NCBI GenBank assembly: GCA_964016885.1
Contig: OZ024743.1
Location: forward strand, 369,272,001-369,336,000
From: Eledone cirrhosa
Lineage: Eukaryota
Direction of reading: 5' to 3'
DNA: 64,000 bases
Made by a program: the position numbers and the translations under genes. The notes below the pieces were generated by a model. That model was not told the DNA's origin. It worked only from the letters and a program-made list of their open reading frames with translations, and did not search any database. How positions within the stretch are numbered: the first letter of the stretch is position 1; each line of letters begins with the position of its first letter. This document shows, in pieces, positions 12,367-51,243 of the stretch.

Positions 12367-12585
12367 TGTATGTATATATGTATGTATATATATATGTATG
12401 TATATATATATGTATATATATATATGTATATATGTATATATGTATGTATATATGTATATATGTATGTATATATGTATATATGTATGTATATATGTATGTA
12501 TGTATATATGTATGTATATATGTATGTATGTATGTGTATGTATGTATGTATATATATATGTATGTGTATGTATGTGTATGTGTAT
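11840..12585. repeat. (TA/TG/TATG)n compound microsatellite
   Basis: Read directly; source of spurious YICV ORFs. Confidence 0.97.
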
Positions 12586-13195
12586 GTCAGGTCACCAGTG
12601 GTGCTACTGGTAACATGTATCCCAGTACAACCTGTCTCATGGTCGGGTCATTGGCGACTAAACTGGCAACCCCACCAAGGTTTCTTGGTGAGGAGGGTGA
12701 CTTTGGACATCCTGCAGGACTAAAAACAAAACCTGTCAAAGGGCAAAGGAGCTCTTAAGAGTCAATGGCCATCCAAAATCACCGGCAGAGATGACCCCCT
12801 TAGCCTTTGTCAAGGCAGAATTCTAGGAGAAGGAAAACTCTGATATAACACCTGCAACCCTAATGGTATCCAATGATGTTGACTTGTTCTTCTTTTTGGT
12901 AAATATCATCTTGGTTAAGAGAGTGGGACTGGTTTTGTGCAGTGCCTTTGCTCACTATAAAAGCTTCACGGCACAGGCATTGCTTTATATCTGGAGATCT
13001 CTCTGCACTTGTCTTCATATGGTACCATGGGCCCAGCACTATGTGTCAATAATTGTCACAAGTGTAGTGTTTGTACCAGAGTTTTCAAGTCGCTGGCTGG
13101 ACTAAAAAGTCACACTTGTTTAGCGCATCAGTAGGGGTTCTCCTACATGGATATAAAGTAGTGGCCGTACTCGAAAACGAGTTGGCAGCCACCAT
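12586..13195 (+). mobile_element. Non-autonomous RTE-derived short retroposon (diverged relative of 4895-5573)
   Basis: Shares 5' block GTGCTACTGG...CATGGTCGGGTC...CCACCAAG..CTTGGTGAGGAG...GGCCATCCAAAA and 3' GGCCGTACTCGAAAACGAG..GGCAGCCA; in TA/TG repeat. Confidence 0.75.
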
Positions 13196-13237
13196 ATGTA
13201 TGTATATATATGTATGTATATGTATGTATATATATAT

Positions 13238-15305
13238 TTCGAAGCTGAACAGTGGAAGATCTCCAGGTATGGATGGCATACATGCTGAGCTCCTACAATA
13301 TGGTGGTGAGAGACTCCTGCAACATCTTCACTCTTTGTTTGGCAGGATATGGGCTAATGAATCCGTACCTGAGGACTGGAGAGATGCAGTAATGGTGGTC
13401 TTGTACAAGTGAAAGGGTAACAGGAACGATTGTGGGAACTACAGAGGTATATCATTGCTTTCTGTCGTAGGGAAAGTTTTATGTAGGGTGCTTCTGGACC
13501 GTCTGCTGACACACATTGCAGATTGTGTTCTTCCTGAAAGTCAATCTGGTTTTCGTGCTGGACGCGGCACTACTGATATGATCTTCTCAGCTAGACAGCT
13601 CCAGGAGAAGTGCATGGAACAAGGCTTGGATCTGTATCAGGTTTTTGTCGATCTGACAAAAGCTTTCGATACTGTTAACAGAGATGCATTATGGAAGGTT
13701 CTCCAGAAACTTGGTTGCCCTGATAAGTTCCTTGCTTTAGTTAGGTCTTTCCATGACGACATGAAGGCTTGGGTTAATGTCGGGGGTAACATGTCGGAGC
13801 CTATCTCAGTAAAAAATGGAGTGAAACAGGGGGATATTCCAGCACCGACCCTGTTTGCCATATACTTTGCAATAGTTTTCTGTATTGCATTCAGGAATTG
13901 CGAGCATGGTGTTTACATCCGATATCGAACCTCAGGCAGCATATTTAACATCAGGCGCTTTGCTGCGAAGACAAAAGTATTTACATCAATCATAAGAGAC
14001 CTCTTGTATGCAGATGATTGCGATCTTGTAGCGCACACAGAGAGTGATATGCAGCACATTTTGAATGCATTTTCTGACGCTTGCACTGCCCTAGGTCTGA
14101 CTGTCAGTCTCAAGAAAACCGTCGTCATGTACCAACCTGCCCCTGGTAAGCAGTACACTGAACCAAACATCTATGTGTATGGCAAACGACTTGGAGTGGT
14201 TGATCAGTTTGTCTACCTGGGAAGTACTGTCAATCGATACAGCAACCTTGACAGTGAAATCTCACTTAGGATTAGGAAAGCAAGTGATGCTTTCGGAAAG
14301 CTAGAAAGGCGCTTCTGGGGTCGGCGAGACATATGCAGGAGGACAAAGGTAAAGGTGTATAGGGCATGTGTGCTCTCTTTTCTTCTTTATGCCTGCGAGA
14401 CCTGGGTCACATATCGACGCCACCTTAAGCAATTGGAGCGTTTCCATCAGATGTGTCTCAGACGGATCCATGGCGTTCACTGAAGGGACCACATCAGTGA
14501 TGTCGAGATTTTGGAAAGCTCTATGTGTGACAGTGTAGAAGCTCTTGTGCTTAAGCAACGACTCCGTTGGAGTGGTCACCTTGCCTGGATGAAGGATTCT
14601 AGAATACCAAAACAACTCTTTTATGGAGAGTTGGTTAAAGGAAAACGACCGCCACATAAACCAAAAAAGAGGTATAAGGATTCCTTGAAAGCCTCTCTGA
14701 AAGACGCTAACATCTCTGCTGATACATGGGAGAATGTTGCTGCTGATCGTAATAAATGGAGAAAGACTGTATATGAGGGAAAAGTTGCCTTTGAGGCATC
14801 TCGAATCGCATACGAGAAAGTAAAGCGGGATGTGAGGAAGGGCATTGCTGTTGCACTTCCAGACGGCGAGGGTCCTCCTATGGTGCTGACATGCAGCGTA
14901 TGTGCGAGACTCTACCTAAGCAAAGCTGGACTCGAAAGTCATCTTCGCAGTCATAAAGTAAGACCAGTGGTTGACTACCAGGCTGCTGTTGGAGATGCTA
15001 CTCATCATGCTTGCCAAACATGTGGTAGAGAATGTAAATCAGCAGGAGGGCTCAAGCGACATGCAAAAGTACACAAATTCCAACCACAGCCGACTATTCC
15101 CAGTAAATGTTTTGGTTGCCGACTCTGTGCAAGACATTTTAGATCATTGGCTGGGCTAAAAAGCCACATTCGATCGCAGCGCTGTTAGTTGCTATCGTGT
15201 GTGTGTGTGTGTAGATATGCTTTTGTGTGTGCGTGTGTGTGTATATATATGTATATTATTATTATTGTTGTTATTAATGTATGTGTGTGTGTGTATATAT
15301 GTATG

Positions 15306-15344
<39 letters not shown>

Positions 15345-15392
15345 TCTTTCTCGTGCAATGGCCATACTCGATAACGAGGGGGCAGCCATCAT
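13238..15392 (+). mobile_element. 5'-truncated RTE (BovB-like) LINE: RT plus three C-terminal C2H2 zinc fingers; one reading frame with two TGA stops
   Basis: SPGMDGIHAE, LPESQSGFR, FVDLTKAFDTV, GVKQGD, LLYADDC, LRWSGH; CSVC..HLRSH, CQTC..HAKVH, CRLC..HIRSQ. ORFs 13071, 13455 and 14511 are in the same frame. Confidence 0.96.
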
Positions 15393-15423
15393 GTATATAT
15401 ATATATGTATGTATATATATATG

Positions 15424-15493
<70 letters not shown>

Positions 15494-15651
15494 TATATAT
15501 GTGTATGTATATGTATGTGTGTGTATATGTATGTATATGTATGTGTGTATATGTATATATATATATATGTGTATATGTGTATATATGTATATATATGTGT
15601 ATATATATATATATGTGTATATATATATATGTATATATATATATATGTGTG

Positions 15652-15682
<31 letters not shown>

Positions 15683-15805
15683 ATGTGTATATGTATATTA
15701 TGTGTATATATATGTGTGTATGTGTATGTATATATGTGTATATATATGTATATATATATATATATATATGTGTATATATATATGTATATATATATATGTA
15801 TATAT
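15393..15805. repeat. (TA/TG)n microsatellite
   Basis: Read directly. Confidence 0.97.
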
Positions 15806-16429
15806 GAGAGTATTGAAGTTTGCTTGAAGCATTGTGGAGCAATAAGTAAATATCTTTAAGTCGTTTGGAAGCCTCGACAATGCAGGTGGGTGAATCTCCG
15901 GGTGGCAGGGTCCGGTGGTGGAGAGGGAGATGTGGGTGGGTGTACGTTGAGATGCGTGGTGTGTGTGGGATGTGTGAGATGTGTGGAATGGAGGGAGGAG
16001 TGGTGGGATAGAGGTGGAAATAGCAACACAGGAGGGAGTTGCCTGGGGAGAAATTTGATGGTCCCTATATGTTTCGGATTCGCATCCATCGGCTGGGGTT
16101 TTTTTCCGGGGTGGGGGAAAAGGTCTGTCGGACAAGTCCGGAAGGCGTCTTTCGCTGTTTGTGATTTTTCCCTCACCCCGGAAAAAAGGGCCCCAGTTGA
16201 TGGATGTGGGTCCGAGGTATATAGGGACTGTTGGGTCTCTCCCAGGGTGGCTCTCTCTTGTGTTGTTGTTTTTATTTTTGTCCTTTTGCTCTTCCCTCCA
16301 TTCTGCACATCTCGCACGTCTTGTACGCGCCACGCATCTCAGCGTGCACCCACTTGCATCTCTTTCTCCACCGCCGGACCTTGTTGCCCGGAGATTTGTC
16401 CATTTGCATTGTCGAGGCTTCCAAACGAC
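15806..16429 (+). mobile_element. Fold-back PLE-pLTR-like insert whose arms differ almost only by G.U pairs (candidate A-to-I hyper-edited retrocopy)
   Basis: 15860-16098 aligns ungapped to rc of 16191-16429: about 60 G.U-type differences and 3 others in 239 nt. Hammerhead-like motif at 16191-16227 after A-restoration. Flanked by TA repeats. Confidence 0.85.
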
Positions 16430-16542
16430 ATATATGTATATATATATATATGTATATATGTATGTATATATATATATATATGTATATATGTATATGTATA
16501 TGTGTATGTATATATATATATATGTATATGTATATGTATATG

Positions 16543-16573
<31 letters not shown>

Positions 16574-16682
16574 GTATATATGTGTATGTATATATGTGTA
16601 TGTATATATATGTGTATGTATATATATGTGTATGTATGTATATGTATGTATGTATGTATGTATGTATATATATGTATGTATG

Positions 16683-16715
<33 letters not shown>

Positions 16716-16775
16716 GTATATATATATGTATGTATGTATATATATATATATGTATGTATATATATATATGTATGT
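16430..16775. repeat. (TA/TATG)n microsatellite
   Basis: Read directly. Confidence 0.97.
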
Positions 16776-19116
16776 CATCATCATCATCATCATCAGGTTT
16801 AGCGTCCGTGTTCCACGCTTGCATGGGTTTGGACGGGGGTTTTCCCACTTGAGGCAAGAGTGGTTGTCTTGCTCGCATAGGACTGTCTGGCGGGTTTTCT
16901 ACAGTTGGATGCCCTTCCTAACACCAACCACATTTACAGTGTGGGGCTGGGAGGTTTTTACCGTGTTGCCTACACGGCCACATTACAGCGTGGACTGTCT
17001 GGCGGGTTTTCTACAGCTGGATGCCCTTCCTAACACCAACCACATTTACAGTGTGGGGCTGGGAGGTTTTTACCGTGTTGCCTACACGGCCACATTTACA
17101 GCGTGGACTGTGTGTTTTTTTGTCGTGACACCTACACGATCTCATTTGTTTCGGCCTGGATGTTGTGGGACCAACATAACTTTACATTGAAAGGGGCGGT
17201 GTGGATGGGGTGGAGGTGGTGGGACGGGGGTGTGTTTTGATAGAGATGCCTACTGACTGTAGTAGGTTTTTTTTACTTTGTATTTAGGTAAGGCGGGTCT
17301 TCTCTATTACTGAGTACTGCCAAAGGTCTCGGTCCAGTGACATTGTCTTGGAGAGGTGTAAGCGTGTGAGGTCGGAATTTATCAGCTCGTCCCATGTTTT
17401 TCTGGGTCTGCCTACTCCGTGGTTACCGTCTATCTTTATTGCCCTGCACTTTGTTATACAGCTGTCGTCTTTCATGCGCATCACGTGACCGTACCAACGT
17501 AGCCTTCTCTCGAGTAAACAACATCTGATCCCTCTTATTTCTAATTTTTTCCTTAGTTCGTTTATGCTTTGCCGTTCACGTATATTACTATTGCACATCC
17601 AGCGGAGCATGCAAGCTTCGTTCCTCTCTAGTCTGCGTATATCCTCTGCACACAATGCCCAGGTCTCACTGCCATGCAGCATTGCTGTTCGTATGCAGGC
17701 ATCGTATAACCTGCCTTTCATTTTTAGGGAGAACCCTCTAGCAGCTAATAGTGGTATAAGCTCTCTGAACTTTTTCCATCCAGTTTTGACTCTAGCTACT
17801 GTACTTTCAGAGCACCCTCCCCCACTGCTGATTTTGTCACCCAGGTAACGGAAGCTGTCCACTATTTCTATAGAACCCTCTGCGCAGTTGAAGGAGCTAG
17901 TATTTTGTGGGCACTTGCTGCTACTTATTGCACCAGAGCACCGGCCACATGTAAAATCTATGTTCTTAGTTAGCTTACCTGTGATCCCACTACATCTTTT
18001 ATGCACCCATACTTTGCATTTGGGACATAAGATGGAGTTTCTACCTACGCCTTTCCTACACACTGAGCATGGCCATTTCCCAGAAGGGACCGCTGCCTTA
18101 TTTTCTTTCCTACAAACTAGAACTTTAGTCTTAGCCAGCTTAATTTTAAGGCCTTTTGATTCTAGGCCGTGCTTACATGTTTGGAATTTCTTCTCTAGTT
18201 CGGTCATTGATTCAGCTATGAGCGTTAGATCATCTGCGTATAGGAGTTCCCATGGGCAGCCGGTCTTGAACTCCTCTGTTATAGCCTGAAGGGCAATAAT
18301 AAATAGTAGGGGGCTAAGAACAGAGCCCTGATGGACACCAACTTTTACGCTAAACTCTTCACTATATTCGTTGTTAATTCTAACCTTACTGACTGTTTCT
18401 TTATACATGGCTTGTATAGCTCTCACAAGCCATTCGTCAACACCTAGTTTTCTAAGAGACCACCAGATAATGGAACGGGGGACTCTGTCGAAGGCTTTCT
18501 CCAAGTCGAAGAAAGCTAAGTAGAGGGGTTTACTTTTAGCTAGGTACTTCTCCTGTAGTTGTCGTACAATGAAAAGAGCATCTGTGGTACTTTTGCCTGA
18601 CACAAACCCGAACTGCATTTCATCTAGATCAATTCTCTCTCTGATTAGTTGCGCTATTACTTTTTCCGTGACCTTCATGACCTGGTCGATTAATTTAATG
18701 CCTCTATAGTTACTCCTATCTAGGGCATCTCCTTTTCCCTTATAGCAGTTAACGATGATGCTGCTACGCCAGTCCTTCGGAACAACCCCATTCTGTACGA
18801 CTTGGTTAACTATCCGGGTGACCATGGTGTGTCCCACCGAACCAGATGCCTTCAGCATCTCAGCAACTATTTCCGAAGGACCAGCCGCCTTACCCGTCTT
18901 CATATCTTTGATTGCCTTGCTTATTGTACTACTCTGGACTAACACTGCTGGTCCCTCTATTGGGTCGATGTGGGGGAGACTGTCTTTCTCCCATTTGTTC
19001 TCCTCATTTAGAAGCCTTTCGTAGTGACACTTCCAAGCTACCTTCTTATCAGCGTCGGTGATGGCAAGTATGCCATCATCGTTAAGTACACACTTCTACC
19101 CGACAATATCACGGTT
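16776..19116 (-). mobile_element. Young 5'-truncated RTE LINE with PHD-finger insertion, 3' UTR and (GAT)n tail
   Basis: Open frame 17284-18945 extends upstream to about 19095 (AWKCHYERLLNEE). 3' UTR at 16776-17283. 5' junction runs into (TA)n. Confidence 0.95.
17284..18945 (-). CDS. RTE ORF2 fragment: reverse transcriptase with inserted C4HC3 PHD finger (N-terminal APE missing)
   Basis: KAAGPSEI, MQFGFVSGKST, FFDLEKAFDRV, GVHQGSVLSPLLF, LYADDL, CSVC-x10-CPKC-x4-H-x2-C-x14-CGRC, FRYLG, LRWYGH, GRPRKTW; 553 codons uninterrupted. Confidence 0.9.
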   Translation of the reverse strand: MLVQSSTISKAIKDMKTGKAAGPSEIVAEMLKASGSVGHTMVTRIVNQVVQNGVVPKDWRSSIIVNCYKGKGDALDRSNYRGIKLIDQVMKVTEKVIAQLIRERIDLDEMQFGFVSGKSTTDALFIVRQLQEKYLAKSKPLYLAFFDLEKAFDRVPRSIIWWSLRKLGVDEWLVRAIQAMYKETVSKVRINNEYSEEFSVKVGVHQGSVLSPLLFIIALQAITEEFKTGCPWELLYADDLTLIAESMTELEKKFQTCKHGLESKGLKIKLAKTKVLVCRKENKAAVPSGKWPCSVCRKGVGRNSILCPKCKVWVHKRCSGITGKLTKNIDFTCGRCSGAISSSKCPQNTSSFNCAEGSIEIVDSFRYLGDKISSGGGCSESTVARVKTGWKKFRELIPLLAARGFSLKMKGRLYDACIRTAMLHGSETWALCAEDIRRLERNEACMLRWMCNSNIRERQSINELRKKLEIRGIRCCLLERRLRWYGHVMRMKDDSCITKCRAIKIDGNHGVGRPRKTWDELINSDLTRLHLSKTMSLDRDLWQYSVIEKTRLT

Positions 19117-19288: not shown

Positions 19289-19323
<35 letters not shown>

Positions 19324-19434
19324 GTATATATATGTATATATATATGTATATATATGTATATATATATATGTATATATATGTATATATATATATATGTATA
19401 TATATGTATATATATATATATGTATATATATGTG

Positions 19435-19511
<77 letters not shown>

Positions 19512-19512
19512 G

Positions 19513-19543
<31 letters not shown>

Positions 19544-19566
19544 GTATATATATGTATCTGTATATA

Positions 19567-19607
<41 letters not shown>

Positions 19608-19616
19608 CTGTATATA

Positions 19617-19657
<41 letters not shown>

Positions 19658-19748
19658 GTATATATATATGTATATATATGTATCTATATATATATATGTA
19701 TATATATGTATCTATATATGTATATATATGTATATATATATATGTATA

Positions 19749-19817
<69 letters not shown>

Positions 19818-19918
19818 GTATATATATATATTTATATATATGTATATATATGTATATATATGTATATATATATATATATGTATATATATGTATATGTATA
19901 TGTATATATATATATATG

Positions 19919-19949
<31 letters not shown>

Positions 19950-19964
19950 GTATATATTTATATG

Positions 19965-19997
<33 letters not shown>

Positions 19998-20138
19998 GTA
20001 TATATATGTATATATATATATATGTATATATATGTATATATGTATATATATATGTATATATATATGTATATATATATATATGTATATATATGTATATATG
20101 TATATATATATGTATATATATATGTATATATATATATG

Positions 20139-20191
<53 letters not shown>

Positions 20192-20320
20192 GTATATATA
20201 TATATGTATATATATGTATATGAATATATATGTATATATATGTATATATATATATGTATATATATGTATATATATATATGTATATATATATATGTATGTA
20301 TATATATGTATATATATATG

Positions 20321-20371
<51 letters not shown>

Positions 20372-20524
20372 GTATATATATGTATATATGTATATATATG
20401 TATATATGTATATATATGTATATATATATATATGTATATATATGTATATATATATATATGTATATATATGTATATATGTATATATATGTATATATATATA
20501 TATATGTATATATATGTATATATG

Positions 20525-20593
<69 letters not shown>

Positions 20594-20740
20594 GTATATA
20601 TATGTATATATATATATATATGTATATATATGTATATATGTATATATATGTATATATATATGTATATATATGTATATGTATATATATATATGTATATATA
20701 TATGTATATATATATATGTATGTATATATGTATATATATG

Positions 20741-20772
<32 letters not shown>

Positions 20773-20778
20773 TGTATG

Positions 20779-20810
<32 letters not shown>

Positions 20811-20822
20811 TGTATATATATG

Positions 20823-20871
<49 letters not shown>

Positions 20872-20922
20872 GTATATATATGTATATATATATATGTATA
20901 TATATATATATGTATATATATG

Positions 20923-20971
<49 letters not shown>

Positions 20972-20982
20972 GTATATATATG

Positions 20983-21029
<47 letters not shown>

Positions 21030-21104
21030 GTATATATATGTATATATATATATATATGTATATATATGTATATATATATATATGTATATATATGTATATA
21101 TATG

Positions 21105-21137
<33 letters not shown>

Positions 21138-21170
21138 GTATATATGTATATATATATATATGTATATATG

Positions 21171-21201
<31 letters not shown>

Positions 21202-21210
21202 GTATATATG

Positions 21211-21257
<47 letters not shown>

Positions 21258-21274
21258 GTATATGTATATATATG

Positions 21275-21305
<31 letters not shown>

Positions 21306-21316
21306 GTATATGTATA

Positions 21317-21357
<41 letters not shown>

Positions 21358-21490
21358 GTATATATATATATATGTATATATGTATATATATGTATATATG
21401 TATATATATGTATATATGTATATATATGTATATATGTATATATATGTATATATATATATATATGTATATATGTATATATGTATATATATG

Positions 21491-21526
<36 letters not shown>

Positions 21527-21800: not shown

Positions 21801-21989
21801 TGGCCGATGTATATATATATGTATGTACACGTACATACATATATGTATACCGACGTACAGTAGTATGTATATATATATATACATACATGCACGTATGGAT
21901 TCACCGAACATTTATTATAATGCTCGGTGTGTTTGTAAACAAACATCCCGTATTAAGCCGTAGTGTCTAGCAACCACCGTTGCTCGTTT

Positions 21990-22076
21990 GTTCAACACTG
22001 ACAAAGGAACGCTGTACTAGTTTCAAGCTTGTTAGCTATCGTCAGTAACGTATACCTTCCTGCCAGATTGTTGAAC
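21990..22076 (-). ncRNA. Type I hammerhead ribozyme (inverted copy; stem I closing pair mutated)
   Basis: rc of 22475-22561 except CGTTA instead of CGTTG before CTGACGA. Confidence 0.75.
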
Positions 22077-22474
22077 GTATATACTTACCTTATGCATATT
22101 AACGGCTGAGTAGCCCAATTTGCATATCGAGTGGGTTAATCGGCCGGGTGCACCGAAAACGATAAACGGAAAAAATGAAACGATATTTCATTTCCCACTC
22201 TTAGTACGGCTGTTACTTAAATATATAAATCCATACGTGCATATATATATGTGTGCATGTATGTATATATATATATACATACTACTGTACGTCGGTATAC
22301 ATATATGTATGTACGTGTACATACTTATATTTAAGTAACAGCCGTACTAAGAGTGGGAAATGAAATATCGTTTCATTTTTTCCGTTTATCGTTTTCGGTG
22401 CACCCGGCCGATTAACCCACTCGATATGCAAATTGGGCTACTCAGCCGTTAATATGCATAAGGTAAGTATATAC

Positions 22475-22561
22475 GTTCAACAATCTGGCAGGAAGGTATA
22501 CGTTGCTGACGATAGCTAACAAGCTTGAAACTAGTACAGCGTTCCTTTGTCAGTGTTGAAC
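22475..22561 (+). ncRNA. Type I hammerhead ribozyme with extended bulged stem I
   Basis: GTTCAACA-AT-CTGGCA-GGAA-GGTATA-CGTTG / CTGACGA / T-AGCT-AACA-AGCT-T / GAA / ACTAGT / A / CAGCG-TTCC-TT-TGTCAG-TGTTGAAC. Intact core, palindromic stem III, GUA cleavage triplet (after 22536). Confidence 0.88.
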
Positions 22562-23046
22562 AAACGAGCAACGGTGGTTGCTAGACACTACGGCTTAATA
22601 CGGGATGTTTGTTTACAAACACACCGAGCATTATAATAAATGTTAGGTGAATCCATACGTGCATATATATATGTGTGCATGTATGTATATATATATATAC
22701 ATACTACTGTACGTCGGTATACATATATGTATGTACGTGTACATACTTATATTTAAGTAACAGCCGTACTAAGAGTGGGAAATGAAATATCGTTTCATTT
22801 TTTCCGTTTATATATATATGTATATATATGTATATATATATATGTATATATATGTATATATGTATATATATGTATATATATGTATATATATATATATGTA
22901 TATATATATGTATATATATGTATATATATATATGTATATATATGTATATATATATATGTATATATATGTATATATATATATGTATATATATGTATATATG
23001 TATATATATGTATATATATATATATATGTATATGTATATATATATG

Positions 23047-37100: not shown

Positions 37101-39888
37101 TGTTATTACCTCTGTAGTAATGGTGGACCATGTATGTGGTGTTACAATGTTATTACCTCTGTAGTAATGGTGGACCATGTATGTGGTGTTACAATGTTAT
37201 TACCACTGTAGTAATGGTGGACCCTGTAGGTGGTGTTACAATGTTATTACCTCTGTAGTAATGGTGGACCATGTATGTGGTGTTACAATGTTATTACCAC
37301 TGTAGTAATGGTGGACCCTGTAGGTGGTGTTACAATGTTATTACCTCTGTAGTAATGGTGGACCATGTATGTGGTGTTACAATGTTATTACCACTGTAGT
37401 AATGGTGGACCATGTAGGTGGTATTACAATGTTATTACCTCTGTAGTAATGGTGGACCATGTAGGTGGTGTTACAATGTTATTACCTCTGTAGTAATGGT
37501 GGACCATGTATGTGGTGTTACAATGTTACTACCTCTGTAGTAATGGTGGACCATGTATGTGGTGTTACAATGTTATTACCACTGTAGTAATGGTGGACCA
37601 TGTAGGTGGTGTTACAATGTTATTACCTCTGTAGTAATGGTGGACCATGTATGTGGTGTTACAATGTTATTACCACTGTAGTAATGGTGGACCATGTATG
37701 TGGTGTTACAATGTTATTACCTCTGTAGTAATGGTGGACCATGTATGTGGTGTTACAATGTTACTACCTCTGTAGTAATGGTGGACCATGTATGTGGTGT
37801 TACAATGTTACTACCTCTGTAGTAATGGTGGACCATGTATGTGGTGTTACAATGTTACTACCTCTGTAGTAATGGTGGACCATGTATGTGGTGTTACAAT
37901 GTTACTACTTCTGTAGTAATGGTGGACCATGTATGTGGTGTTACAATGTTATTACCACTGTAGTAATGGTGGACCATGTAGGTGGTGTTATAATGTTACT
38001 ACCTCTGTAGTAATGGTGGACCATGTATGTGGTGTTACAATGTTACTACCTCTGTAGTAATGGTGGACCATGTATGTGGTGTTACAATGTTATTACCACT
38101 GTAGTAATGGTGGACCATGTATGTGGTGTTACAATGTTACTACCTCTGAAGTAATGGTGGACCATGTATGTGGTGTTACAATGTTATTACCTCTGTAGTA
38201 ATGGTGGACCATGTATGTGGTGTTACAATGTTATTACCTCTGTAGTAATGGTGGACCATGTATGTGGTGTTACAATGTTACTACCTCTGAAGTAATGGTG
38301 GACCATGTATGTGGTGTTACAATGTTATTACCTCTGTAGTAATGGTGGACCATGTATGTGGTGTTACAATGTTATTACCACTGTAGTAATGGTGGACCCT
38401 GTAGGTGGTGTTACAATGTTATTACCTCTGTAGTAATGGTGGACCATGTATGTGGTATTACAATGTTATTACCTCTGTAGTAATGGTGGACCATGTAGGT
38501 GGTGTTACAATGTTATTACCTCTGTAGTAATGGTGGACCATGTATGTGGTGTTACAATGTTACTACCTCTGTAGTAATGGTGGACCATGTATGTGGTGTT
38601 ACAATGTTATTACCTCTGTAGTAATGGTGGACCATGTATGTGGTGTTACAATGTTACTACCTCTGAAGTAATGGTGGACCATGTATGTGGTGTTACAATG
38701 TTATTACCTCTGTAGTAATGGTGGACCATGTATGTGGTGTTACAATGTTATTACCACTGTAGTAATGGTGGACCCTGTAGGTGGTGTTACAATGTTATTA
38801 CCTCTGTAGTAATGGTGGACCATGTAGGTGGTATTACAATGTTATTACCTCTGTAGTAATGGTGGACCATGTAGGTGGTGTTACAATGTTATTACCTCTG
38901 TAGTAATGGTGGACCATGTATGTGGTGTTACAATGTTACTACCTCTGTAGTAATGGTGGACCATGTATGTGGTGTTACAATGTTATTACCACTGTAGTAA
39001 TGGTGGACCATGTAGGTGGTGTTACAATGTTATTACCTCTGTAGTAATGGTGGACCATGTATGTGGTGTTACAATGTTATTACCACTGTAGTAATGGTGG
39101 ACCATGTATGTGGTGTTACAATGTTATTACCTCTGTAGTAATGGTGGACCATGTATGTGGTGTTACAATGTTACTACCTCTGTAGTAATGGTGGACCATG
39201 TATGTGGTGTTACAATGTTACTACCTCTGTAGTAATGGTGGACCATGTATGTGGTGTTACAATGTTACTACCTCTGTAGTAATGGTGGACCATGTATGTG
39301 GTGTTACAATGTTACTACTTCTGTAGTAATGGTGGACCATGTATGTGGTGTTACAATGTTATTACCACTGTAGTAATGGTGGACCATGTAGGTGGTGTTA
39401 TAATGTTACTACCTCTGTAGTAATGGTGGACCATGTATGTGGTGTTACAATGTTACTACCTCTGTAGTAATGGTGGACTATGTATGTGGTGTTACAATGT
39501 TATTACCTCTAGTAATGGTGGACCATGTAGGTGGTGTTACAGTGTTATTACCTCTGTAGTAATGGTGGACCATGTAGGTGGTGTTACAATGTTATTACCT
39601 CTGTAGTAATGGTGGACCATGTATGTGGTGTTACAATGTTATTACCTCTGTAGTAATGGTGGACCATGTATGTGGTGTTACAATGTTACTACCTCTGTAG
39701 TAATGGTGGACCATGTATGTGGTGTTACAATGTTATTACCTCTGTAGTAATGGTGGACCATGTATGTGGTGTTACAATGTTACTACCTCTGTAGTAATGG
39801 TGGACCATGTAGGTGGTGTTACAATGTTATTACCCCTGTAGTAATGGTGGACCATGTATGTGGTGTTACAATGTTATTACCTCTGTTA
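37101..39888. repeat. 47-bp minisatellite, about 59 copies (TTATTACCTCTGTAGTAATGGTGGACCATGTATGTGGTGTTACAATG)
   Basis: Period 47 read directly (37101 to 37148); few variant positions. Confidence 0.98.
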
Positions 39889-48489: not shown

Positions 48490-51243
48490 TGCTGCTACTA
48501 TCACTATTACTATTATTACTATTACTACTATTACTATTATTACTATTACTATTATTACTATTACCACTATTACCACTATTACTATTACCACTATTACTAT
48601 TATTACTATTACTATTACCACTATTACTATTACCACTATTACTATTACCACTATTACTATTATTACTATTACTACTATTATTACTATTACTATTACCACT
48701 ATTACTATTACCACTATTACTATTACCACTTACTATTACCACTATTACTATTACCACTATTACTATTATTACTATTACTACTATTATTACTATTACTATT
48801 ACCACTATTACTATTACCACTATTACTATTACTACTATTACCACTATTACTATTACCACTATTACTATTACCACTATTACTATTACCACTATTACTATTA
48901 CCACTATTACTATTATTACTATTACTACTATTATTACTATTACTATTACCACTATTACTATTACCACTATTACTATTACTACTATTACCACTATTACTAT
49001 TACCACTATTACTATTACCACTATTACTATTACCACTATTACTATTACCACTATTACTATTACCACTATTACTATTACCACTATTACTATTACTACTATT
49101 ACCACTATTACTATTACCACTATTACTATTACCACTATTACTATTACTACTATTACCACTATTACTATTACCACTATTACTATTACCACTATTACTATTA
49201 CCACTATTACTATTACTACTATTACTATTACCACTATTACTATTATTACTATTACTACTATTATTACTATTACTATTACCACTATTACTATTACTACTAT
49301 TACCACTATTACTATTACCACTATTACTATTACCACTATTACTATTACCACTATTACTATTACCACTATTACTATTACCACTATTACTATTACCACTATT
49401 ACTATTACCACTATTACTATTACCACTATTACTATTACCACTATTACTATTACTACTATTACTATTACTACTATTACTATTACCACTATTACTATTATTA
49501 CTATTACCACTATTACTATTACCACTATTACTATTACCACTATTACTATTATTACTATTACTACTATTACTATTACCACTACCACTATTACTATTACCAC
49601 TATTACTATTACCACTATTACTATTACCACTACCACTATTACTATTACCACTATTACTATTATTACTATTACTACTATTACTATTACTACTATTACTATT
49701 ATCACTATTACTATTACCACTATTACTATTACCACTATTACTATTACCACTATTACTATTACCACTATTACTATTACCACTATTACTATTACCACTATTA
49801 CTATTACCACTATTACTATTATTACTATTACCACTATTACTATTATTACTATTACTATTATTACTATTATTACTATTATTACTATTACTACTATTACTAT
49901 TACCACTATTACTATTACCACTATTACTATTACTACTATTACTATTACCACTATTACTATTACCACTATTACTATTACTACTATTACTATTACCACTATT
50001 ACTATTATTACTATTACTATTACTACTATTACTATTACCACTACCACTATTACTATTACCACTATTACTATTACCACTATTACTATTATTACTATTACTA
50101 TTATTATTACTATTATTACTACTATTACTATTACCACTATTACTATTACCACTATTACTATTACCACTATTACTATTACTACTATTACTATTACCACTAT
50201 TACTATTACCACTATTACTATTACCACTATTACTATTACCACTATTACTATTACCACTATTACTATTATTACTATTACTATTATTACTATTACTATTACC
50301 ACTATTACTACTATTACTATTACCACTATTACTATTACCACTATTACTATTACCACTATTACTATTACTACTATTACTATTACCACTATTACTATTACCA
50401 CTATTACTATTATTACTATTACTATTACTACTATTACCACTATTACTATTATTATTATTATTACTATTACTACTATTACTACTATTACTATTATTACTAT
50501 AACTATTACTATTATTACTATTACCACTATTACTATTATTACTATTATTACTATTACCACTATTACTATTATTACTATTACCACTATTACTATTACCACT
50601 ACCACTATTACTATTACCACTATTACTATTACCACTATTACTATTACCACTATTACTATTACCACTATTACTATTACCACTATTACTATTATTACTATTA
50701 CTACTATTACTATTATTACTATTACCACTATTACTATTACTACTACTATTACTATTACCACTATTACTATTACCACTATTACTATTATCACTTACTATTA
50801 CCACTATTACTATTATTACTATTACCACTATTACTACTATTACTATTATTACTATTACCACTATTACTATTATTACTATTACTATTACTACTATTACTAT
50901 TACCACTATTACTATTACCACTATTACTATTACCACTATTACTATTACCACTATTACTACTATTACTATTATTACTATTACTATTACCACTATTACTATT
51001 ACCACTATTACTATTACCACTATTACTACTATTACTATTATTACTATTACCACTATTACTATTATTACTATTACTACTATTACTATTATCACTATTACTA
51101 TTACCACTATTACTATTATTACTATTACTACTATTACTATTATCACTATTACTATTACCACTATTACTATTACCACTATTACTATTATTACTATTACCAC
51201 TATTACTATTACCACTATTACTATTACCACCACTACTACTACA
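48490..51243. repeat. About 2.75-kb TAC/TAT/CAC trinucleotide satellite, dominant 15-mer CTATTACTATTACCA
   Basis: Read directly; source of spurious VI/SN ORFs. Confidence 0.98.

Follow-up and report, generated by a model that had tools for sequence, protein, structure and literature searches.

A-to-G hypermutated avian retroviruses have been described for avian leukosis virus (Hajjar & Linial 1995) and for the U3 of RAV-1 (Felder et al. 1994), both as cited in PMC12925331 and PMC8586724; in those accounts, nearly half of the adenosines of an inverted repeat became G through ADAR acting on RNA and were fixed by reverse transcription. The APOBEC "DNA editing" fossils of LTR retrotransposons are recognized as strand-biased clusters of a single transition relative to an unedited source or family consensus, in that case G>A changes made by a cytidine deaminase on the cDNA of vertebrate ERVs (Knisbacher & Levanon, PMC4866542). 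The same G>A screen of LTR elements placed 19 invertebrate genomes at noise level, and ADAR is not mentioned in the passages that report it (PMC4866542). From comparisons of RNA with its own DNA, ADAR hyper-editing of inverted-repeat transcripts is known as clustered A>G in long dsRNA, depleted at sites with a 5' G (Porath et al., PMC4365171; Eggington et al., PMC3113232), with a 5' preference of U>A>C>G for human ADAR1 and ADAR2 (PMC3113232, Table 3). Cephalopods edit repeats in all tissues (PMC9068888). Restriction of human L1 by ADAR1 is described as editing-independent, with no edits in more than 2.5 kb of L1 RNA (PMC5224506).

Here, we describe a hairpin in a 64,000-nucleotide stretch of Eledone cirrhosa DNA (the window, on contig C4), together with an unedited sister on contig C2 and a second hyper-edited copy on contig C9. 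We propose, at a probability of roughly 0.85, that ADAR-hyper-edited read-through RNA of a LINE was retrotransposed twice from a source resembling the C2 locus, so that RNA edits became inherited DNA mutations. The avian retroviruses are infectious, whereas these would be inherited chromosomal non-LTR insertions in which the duplex is a passenger from another transposon class, and an unedited source and a second copy stand in the same genome. Unlike the APOBEC fossils, the changes are A>G, apparently made on RNA, and limited to the duplex, and the pattern familiar from hyper-edited RNA is here found in the genome. Relative to human L1 and ADAR1, the window locus would be the complementary outcome. 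A keyword search of main texts, covering few subscription journals, listed no paper on a non-LTR retrocopy that was hyper-edited by ADAR and inherited; the supplements of PMC4866542 may bear on this point.

A genomic hairpin with one-sided mismatches

The hairpin and its surroundings comprise the following features, in window coordinates.

12588–13237, plus strand: SINE-like short relative of the carrier LINE, joined to it; the junction was found at full length only in the window and at C2, among the 40 of 888 candidates scored
13238–15395, plus strand: 5'-truncated LINE, probably RTE-type, with reverse transcriptase (RT) and C2H2 zinc fingers; proposed carrier strand of the edited RNA; two in-frame stops common to C2; not hypermutated
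15392–15805, plus strand: (TA/TG)n tract from the source, richer in TG and TGTG than at C2
15806–15859, minus strand: tail of the Penelope-like element, a 3'-terminal extension that is unpaired and lies outside the long stem
15860–16120, plus strand: left arm, antisense of the 3' UTR of the Penelope-like element; on the plus strand, G has replaced 32 of its 78 stem A
16121–16170 (limits approximate), plus strand: loop, a fold-back junction specific to the three copies (unedited C2, window, C9); no A>G
16171–16429, plus strand: right arm, a 5'-truncated copy in inverted orientation; G has replaced 28 of its 63 stem A; partly matched by a raw-data contig
16430–16773, plus strand: (TA/TATG)n tract, apparent 3' end of the window copy, common to C2 and C9; TG share unchanged
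16774–19115, minus strand: a different LINE (RT and PHD), inserted tail-first at the downstream tract and outside the copied unit

The arms (15860–16098 against 16429–16191) align ungapped over 239 columns, of which 176 are Watson-Crick pairs, 60 are G.T, and one each is A.C, T.T and G.A. The G lies on the left arm in 34 of the G.T columns and on the right arm in 26, a recount identical to the earlier note's figure of about 60 G.U against one A.C. The plus strand folds at -482.7 kcal/mol and the minus strand at -325.2 kcal/mol, whereas the C2 sister, a near-perfect hairpin, folds at -525.2 and -517.3 kcal/mol on plus and minus strands, respectively. As background, we collected 153 inverted-repeat rows from 540 kb of fetched DNA and set aside 11 that repeat the window locus or one other locus; the remaining 142 rows, which overlap and are not independent, hold 555 G.T and 584 A.C columns. 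The asymmetry of the window hairpin is genuine and far beyond this background. Another near-perfect palindromic repeat in the window, at 21807–22810, is unedited (326 matches, 1 G.T, 0 A.C), and related sequence lies near L005 and L007.

Penelope-like origin of the hairpin

By its sequence, the hairpin is a Penelope-like 5'-truncated fold-back. Longer family copies encode a reverse transcriptase domain (RVT_1, E 1.6e-10) and, at the C-terminus, a GIY-YIG domain that scores 20 bits (E 8.6e-4), below the 22.6 cut-off, with its motif visible in the ORF. Because the Penelope-like ORF reads along the minus strand of the left arm, the tailed 3' end of the element lies at 15806 on the minus strand. 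The family shows an inverted 5'-truncated copy and a one-ended tail, with loops and arm lengths that vary among copies. These traits, with the RT, the C-terminal GIY-YIG and microsatellite targets, are those described for Penelope-like elements, which typically carry a one-ended tail of 30–40 bp (Craig et al., PMC8557442). The likeness covers the origin of the hairpin only, since the window copy appears to have been moved again by another element and is hypermutated.

No hammerhead ribozyme matched at the Rfam gathering score in four longer, still truncated family copies, and none turned up in window positions 12400–17400, where the 42 matches with E<=1 are all sub-threshold and driven by microsatellites. 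A hammerhead ribozyme in the pLTR is typical of Penelope-like elements (PLEs) but not universal. Two further RT-like frames, belonging to other element families, lie near a Penelope copy (L044:555 and L044:7072).

Family copies and an unedited sister give the direction of change

The Penelope-like family is large: at least 88 matches were found with 40 of 2,809 candidates scored, and one 33-letter arm pattern has 2,283 family matches; among the first 100 listed, 97 read all-A. When compared with the majority letter of 17 family copies in each of 525 columns, 59 of the 74 differences in the window copy are A>G, as are 57 of 73 in the C9 copy, while each of the other 18 family copies carries between zero and three. 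The second hyper-edited copy lies at C9:24215429–24216052 (L002).

A pattern specific to the loop has exactly three matches, namely the window, C9 and C2:627630, and the C2 copy has loop, right junction and flanks in common with the window copy. Compared with this unedited sister, the window has 63 A>G changes and C9 has 66; among 174 A sites, 45 are changed in both copies, 18 in the window only, 21 in C9 only and 90 in neither. Family and sister alike give A as the ancestral state at the changed sites, as the earlier note had read it, and the G/C version that would reverse this polarity is not that of the family. Besides A>G, the window arms carry four private changes of other kinds, against six in C9 and one in C2. 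Four of the six in C9 are G>T, and one is a C>T at a CpG that an A>G had created. Derived changes other than A>G that are common to both edited copies are absent from the arms. The private changes would fit inheritance over generations rather than somatic insertion.

The changes follow stem, strand and 5' neighbor preferences of ADAR

Relative to C2, 60 of 141 stem A in the window and 64 of 143 in C9 (43–45%) have changed to G, in both arms and on the same strand, with T>C at 0 of 143 sites in each copy. In the 5' extension, one A of 20 is changed in the window (15839) and none of 20 in C9. The flank copied along with the hairpin shows 2 A>G among 718 A over 2.6 kb in the window (Fisher p=4e-50 against the stem) and 3 among 229 A in C9 (p=8e-28). 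Window positions 12588–15195 match the stretch upstream of the C2 hairpin at 99.35% identity, with 16 substitutions that include these 2 A>G; polarized by outgroup, one is derived in the window and one in C2.

Pooled over both copies, the changed fraction by 5' neighbor is U 51/68, A 51/87, C 16/61 and G 6/68, the U>A>C>G order of human ADAR1 and ADAR2, which the earlier note had likewise given for ADAR. Its estimate of about three 5' G sites among 60 also stands, with 3 of the 60 changed stem A preceded by G, and the depletion survives a formal test: 3 of 34 GA sites are changed in the window compared with 57 of 107 others (Fisher p=2.3e-6; C9, p=8.2e-7). Enrichment of a 3' G is not significant in either copy (p=0.67 and 0.83). 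When 5'-G sites are excluded post hoc, the 3' neighbors rank as G (17/22), C (34/59), A (42/75) and U (25/60), which is the hADAR1 order, G > C ~ A > U.

The outer 25 bp of the stem (15860–15884 and 16405–16429) are spared, with 0 of 12 A changed in the window and 1 of 12 in C9 (1/24 compared with 8.3 expected from context, p=1.5e-4); this part was possibly protein-bound or folded otherwise. Of the earlier claim that the outer 25 bp and the 5' extension are unconverted, the first half holds for the window, and the change at 15839 qualifies the second.

Four loci together yield 12 A_deamin matches, and an exon on C6 has human ADAR2 as its best match (E 2e-101). The genome is thus predicted to encode ADAR-type deaminases, including an ADAR2-like exon, so the argument for ADAR does not depend on assuming a coleoid host.

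A LINE read-through transcript as the probable carrier

The edits lie on the strand that is sense for the upstream RTE-type LINE unit, whereas the Penelope tail is on the other strand. Since the edits are on the plus strand and the Penelope 3' end on the minus strand, since the flanks are common to C2, and since the family patterns found no hyper-edited copy outside the unit, the hairpin was most likely cargo of a LINE read-through RNA. The earlier note had named as carrier a hyper-edited Penelope-type transcript, reverse-transcribed into a (TA)n site. The Penelope-like nature of the hairpin is borne out, and so are the polarity, strand, stem and 5' order expected of ADAR editing followed by reverse transcription; the carrier was wrong, the (TA)n flanks being common to unedited C2.

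The two edited copies hold different parts of the unit. The window copy comprises the 5' part through the hairpin and ends in (TA/TATG)n, like the 28 SINE tails examined. The C9 copy starts in the LINE 3' UTR and consists of the last ~95 nt of the LINE, the hairpin, and the two SINEs found downstream of the C2 hairpin, ending at the SINE tail, past which it diverges. Both flanks are present at C2, and neither edited copy holds the flank of the other. The homology of the edited copies to C2 ends in microsatellites, where target-site duplications are unreadable, and none is visible at the copy ends. At C2, a different LINE of 1.6 kb lies in the microsatellite between the LINE end and the hairpin and is absent from both edited copies; it was therefore inserted later, or C2 is a sibling of the source. 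In the surroundings (C2:617000–629400, L034–L036), ~0.62 Mb from the contig start, LINEs and SINEs are nested head to tail and on the same strand in (TA/TG)n tracts; this is likely the source region of the read-through RNA.

The stops in the carrier LINE are common to C2, which suggests mobilization in trans. An intact relative, 96.5% identical, has a 1,239-aa frame with Exo_endo_phos, RVT_1 and a zinc finger. An uninterrupted 1,240-aa endonuclease-RT-C2H2 frame of the same family lies beside a Penelope fold-back at L051 (C4:349995501–350003500). We infer the label RTE-type from architecture, namely a single ORF with endonuclease and RT and a short (TA/TATG)n tail; the Atlas clusters for this LINE are unnamed endonuclease-RT clusters only. 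By the same architectural criterion (single ORF, endonuclease, RT, C2H2 finger), it resembles the octopus RTE-2_OV as that element is described in PMC9115989.

LINE 3' transduction is established for L1. The events proposed here are like it in that a downstream flank was copied with the LINE and unlike it in that the carrier is truncated, has stops and needs a helper in trans, and the cargo carries RNA edits.

Raw reads at the edited sites

Edited words were sought in three runs of one sample (X1–X3), whose kind is unrecorded and which may be the assembly's own. The share of sampled words present is 0.28 in X1 and close to zero in X2 and X3, where so low a share does not prove absence. No RNA run was among those listed with these words. 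A 156-nt contig from X1 (depth 6.9) covers 16144–16298 with no differing letter and one gap. The earlier note had called for raw genomic reads carrying the G sites; this contig supplies 17 A>G sites, on the right-arm side and in one run of three, perhaps from the assembly's own sample. Family words at a depth above 100,000 suggest that the X1 reads are genomic DNA. The match argues against an assembly artefact for 16144–16298 only.

Search for further edited copies and hairpins

Among ~2,280 arm matches, hyper-edited copies were found at two loci only, the window and C9, using patterns that cover three short sites and miss copies that are older or edited elsewhere. The two patterns that require two A>G each gave two matches and one match, all of them the window or C9, with C9 missed once through a private T>G; the pattern that requires one A>G gave 17 loci, and only the window and C9 are hypermutated. 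As the three patterns revealed no further hyper-edited Penelope copy, editing appears to be tied to the read-through unit rather than to Penelope's own cycle.

Elsewhere, a fold-back with 8 G.T and 0 A.C at L064:1–730 (C3:220200024–220200753) was rejected as C>T decay, having 7 C>T and 2 A>G on the sense strand compared with nine family arms. A G.T excess alone is therefore no evidence, and polarization by a family is required. The family of L064 is large (1,836 candidates). Three other G.T-biased hairpins (L010, L084 and L078) were rejected as loop or low-complexity misalignment or as having too few differences, L010 by its spectrum. A mild stem G.T excess is seen at L071:1927–2271 (6:3) and L075:2469–3116 (9:3).

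Alternative explanations

A route that would still write RNA into DNA is duplication at the DNA level followed by overwriting of the hairpin with cDNA of ADAR-edited RNA, through RNA-templated gene conversion or repair. It would explain why edits are confined to the hairpin and why no target-site duplication is visible. We nevertheless regard it as improbable, since the copies are dispersed, break in microsatellites or at a SINE tail, and in one case are 5'-truncated in a LINE 3' UTR; moreover, likelier targets of conversion would have been the transcribed source, which is unedited, or some arms among the 2,283 of the family. Error-prone DNA synthesis through the hairpin, by the LINE reverse transcriptase or a pol-eta-like polymerase, merits the same low standing. 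Pol-eta has an A>G bias after A/T, so the observed 5' U/A preference overlaps its WA motif, and the changes did arise at a copying event. Such synthesis, however, accounts poorly for a change in 43–45% of stem A with no T>C and few other substitutions, for the sparing of the loop and of 2.6 kb of the same copy, and for the grading of 5' C above G. Slightly less credible still is an artefact of assembly or polishing, for example from edited RNA reads used in polishing or a base-calling error specific to hairpins: although edited words occur in one of the three runs only, the X1 contig matches over 156 nt with 17 edited sites, the edit sets differ between the two loci, whose flanks are unique, and 18 equally perfect family hairpins are clean.

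The remaining explanations have the least in their favor. Editing of a transcript of the Penelope element itself, which that element's RT then inserted, would suit a Penelope-derived hairpin located in (TA)n; it is already largely refuted, because the edited strand is opposite to the one with the element's 3' tail, the edited copies share LINE and SINE flanks with unedited C2, and other edited family copies were not found by the three patterns. Just as remote is ADAR acting at genomic copies on the DNA strand of an RNA:DNA hybrid, although ADAR can edit DNA in hybrids (Zheng 2017, as cited in PMC12925331), since this would not spare the loop and the LINE yet strike the same strand in both arms. 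We place no higher a selection that favors a hairpin RNA rich in G.U; the earlier note had offered selection on a strand-specific hairpin RNA as its alternative, and the plus strand does still fold fully. Such selection is not needed. It cannot produce a one-way change of ~10% in the arms while the flanks diverge by 0.6%, and the ancestral hairpin, being perfect, was more stable to begin with.

Proposed history of the edited copies

We therefore return to editing of a LINE read-through RNA followed by retrotransposition. A Penelope-like element first left a perfect fold-back of ~620 nt within the (TA)n tract that directly follows a SINE and a 5'-truncated LINE, an arrangement that survives unedited at C2. 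Read-through transcription from the sense strand of the LINE would then have yielded RNA with a duplex of ~290 bp, in which an enzyme with the signature of ADAR deaminated 43–45% of the stem A, in both arms and on one strand. An intact family member acting in trans would have copied RNAs of this kind by reverse transcription into germline DNA on at least two occasions, inosine being read as G, with the window copy on C4 and the C9 copy, at two chromosomes, as the products.

Within the stem, 43 edits are shared by the two copies, compared with 38.7+/-2.2 expected from context (p=0.038), and sharing in rare contexts is at chance (5' C, 3 compared with 2.4 expected; 5' G, 1 compared with 0.3). 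Two independently edited RNAs are the simplest reading of the shared and private edits. Because the copies share somewhat more edits than context predicts, an intermediate that was itself edited and has since been lost may stand behind both.

TA/TG microsatellites as possible editing fossils

TG makes up 36 of 197 dinucleotides of the upstream (TA/TG)n tract in C2, 60 of 208 in the window (p=0.014) and 57 of 195 in C9 (p=0.013); TGTG occurs 2, 21 and 17 times, respectively, and the downstream tract is unchanged. These counts weakly suggest that the upstream tract, as self-paired (UA)n, was edited too, although microsatellites also change by slippage. The 28 SINE 3' tails (L062–L089) are an irregular mix of TA and TG with 389 GT and 3 AC dinucleotides on the sense strand, which could stem from slippage units of the RT or from (UA)n editing that accumulated. 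Within the window, a 2.2-kb (TA)n array at 19289–21526 has scattered TG on the plus strand and is essentially without CA, and minisatellite arrays lie at 37101–39886 and 48497–51242 (47-nt unit ×59; 15-nt unit ×186).

A broader idea, which we consider speculative and unlikely, is that ADAR and microsatellite-tailed LINEs together form a recurrent germline mutational pathway, in which read-through fold-backs are written back in edited form and TA/TG tails are fossils of cumulative (UA)n editing. If so, RNA editing would shape a visible part of the repeat landscape of this genome.

Discussion

The locus is probably a mutational fossil, itself without function. It would be a case, direct and open to checking, in which RNA edits have entered the inherited genome, and the unedited source, the second edited copy and the unedited flank of the same molecule provide controls that are usually missing from such claims. 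On the proposed history, ADAR would be active in germ cells or cells of the early embryo on RNA that is competent for retrotransposition, and RNA with a heavy load of inosine would still be usable as a template for insertion. An inverted repeat with a G.T excess on one strand, in a family that has A, offers a simple genome-wide assay of past germline ADAR specificity in species without RNA data.
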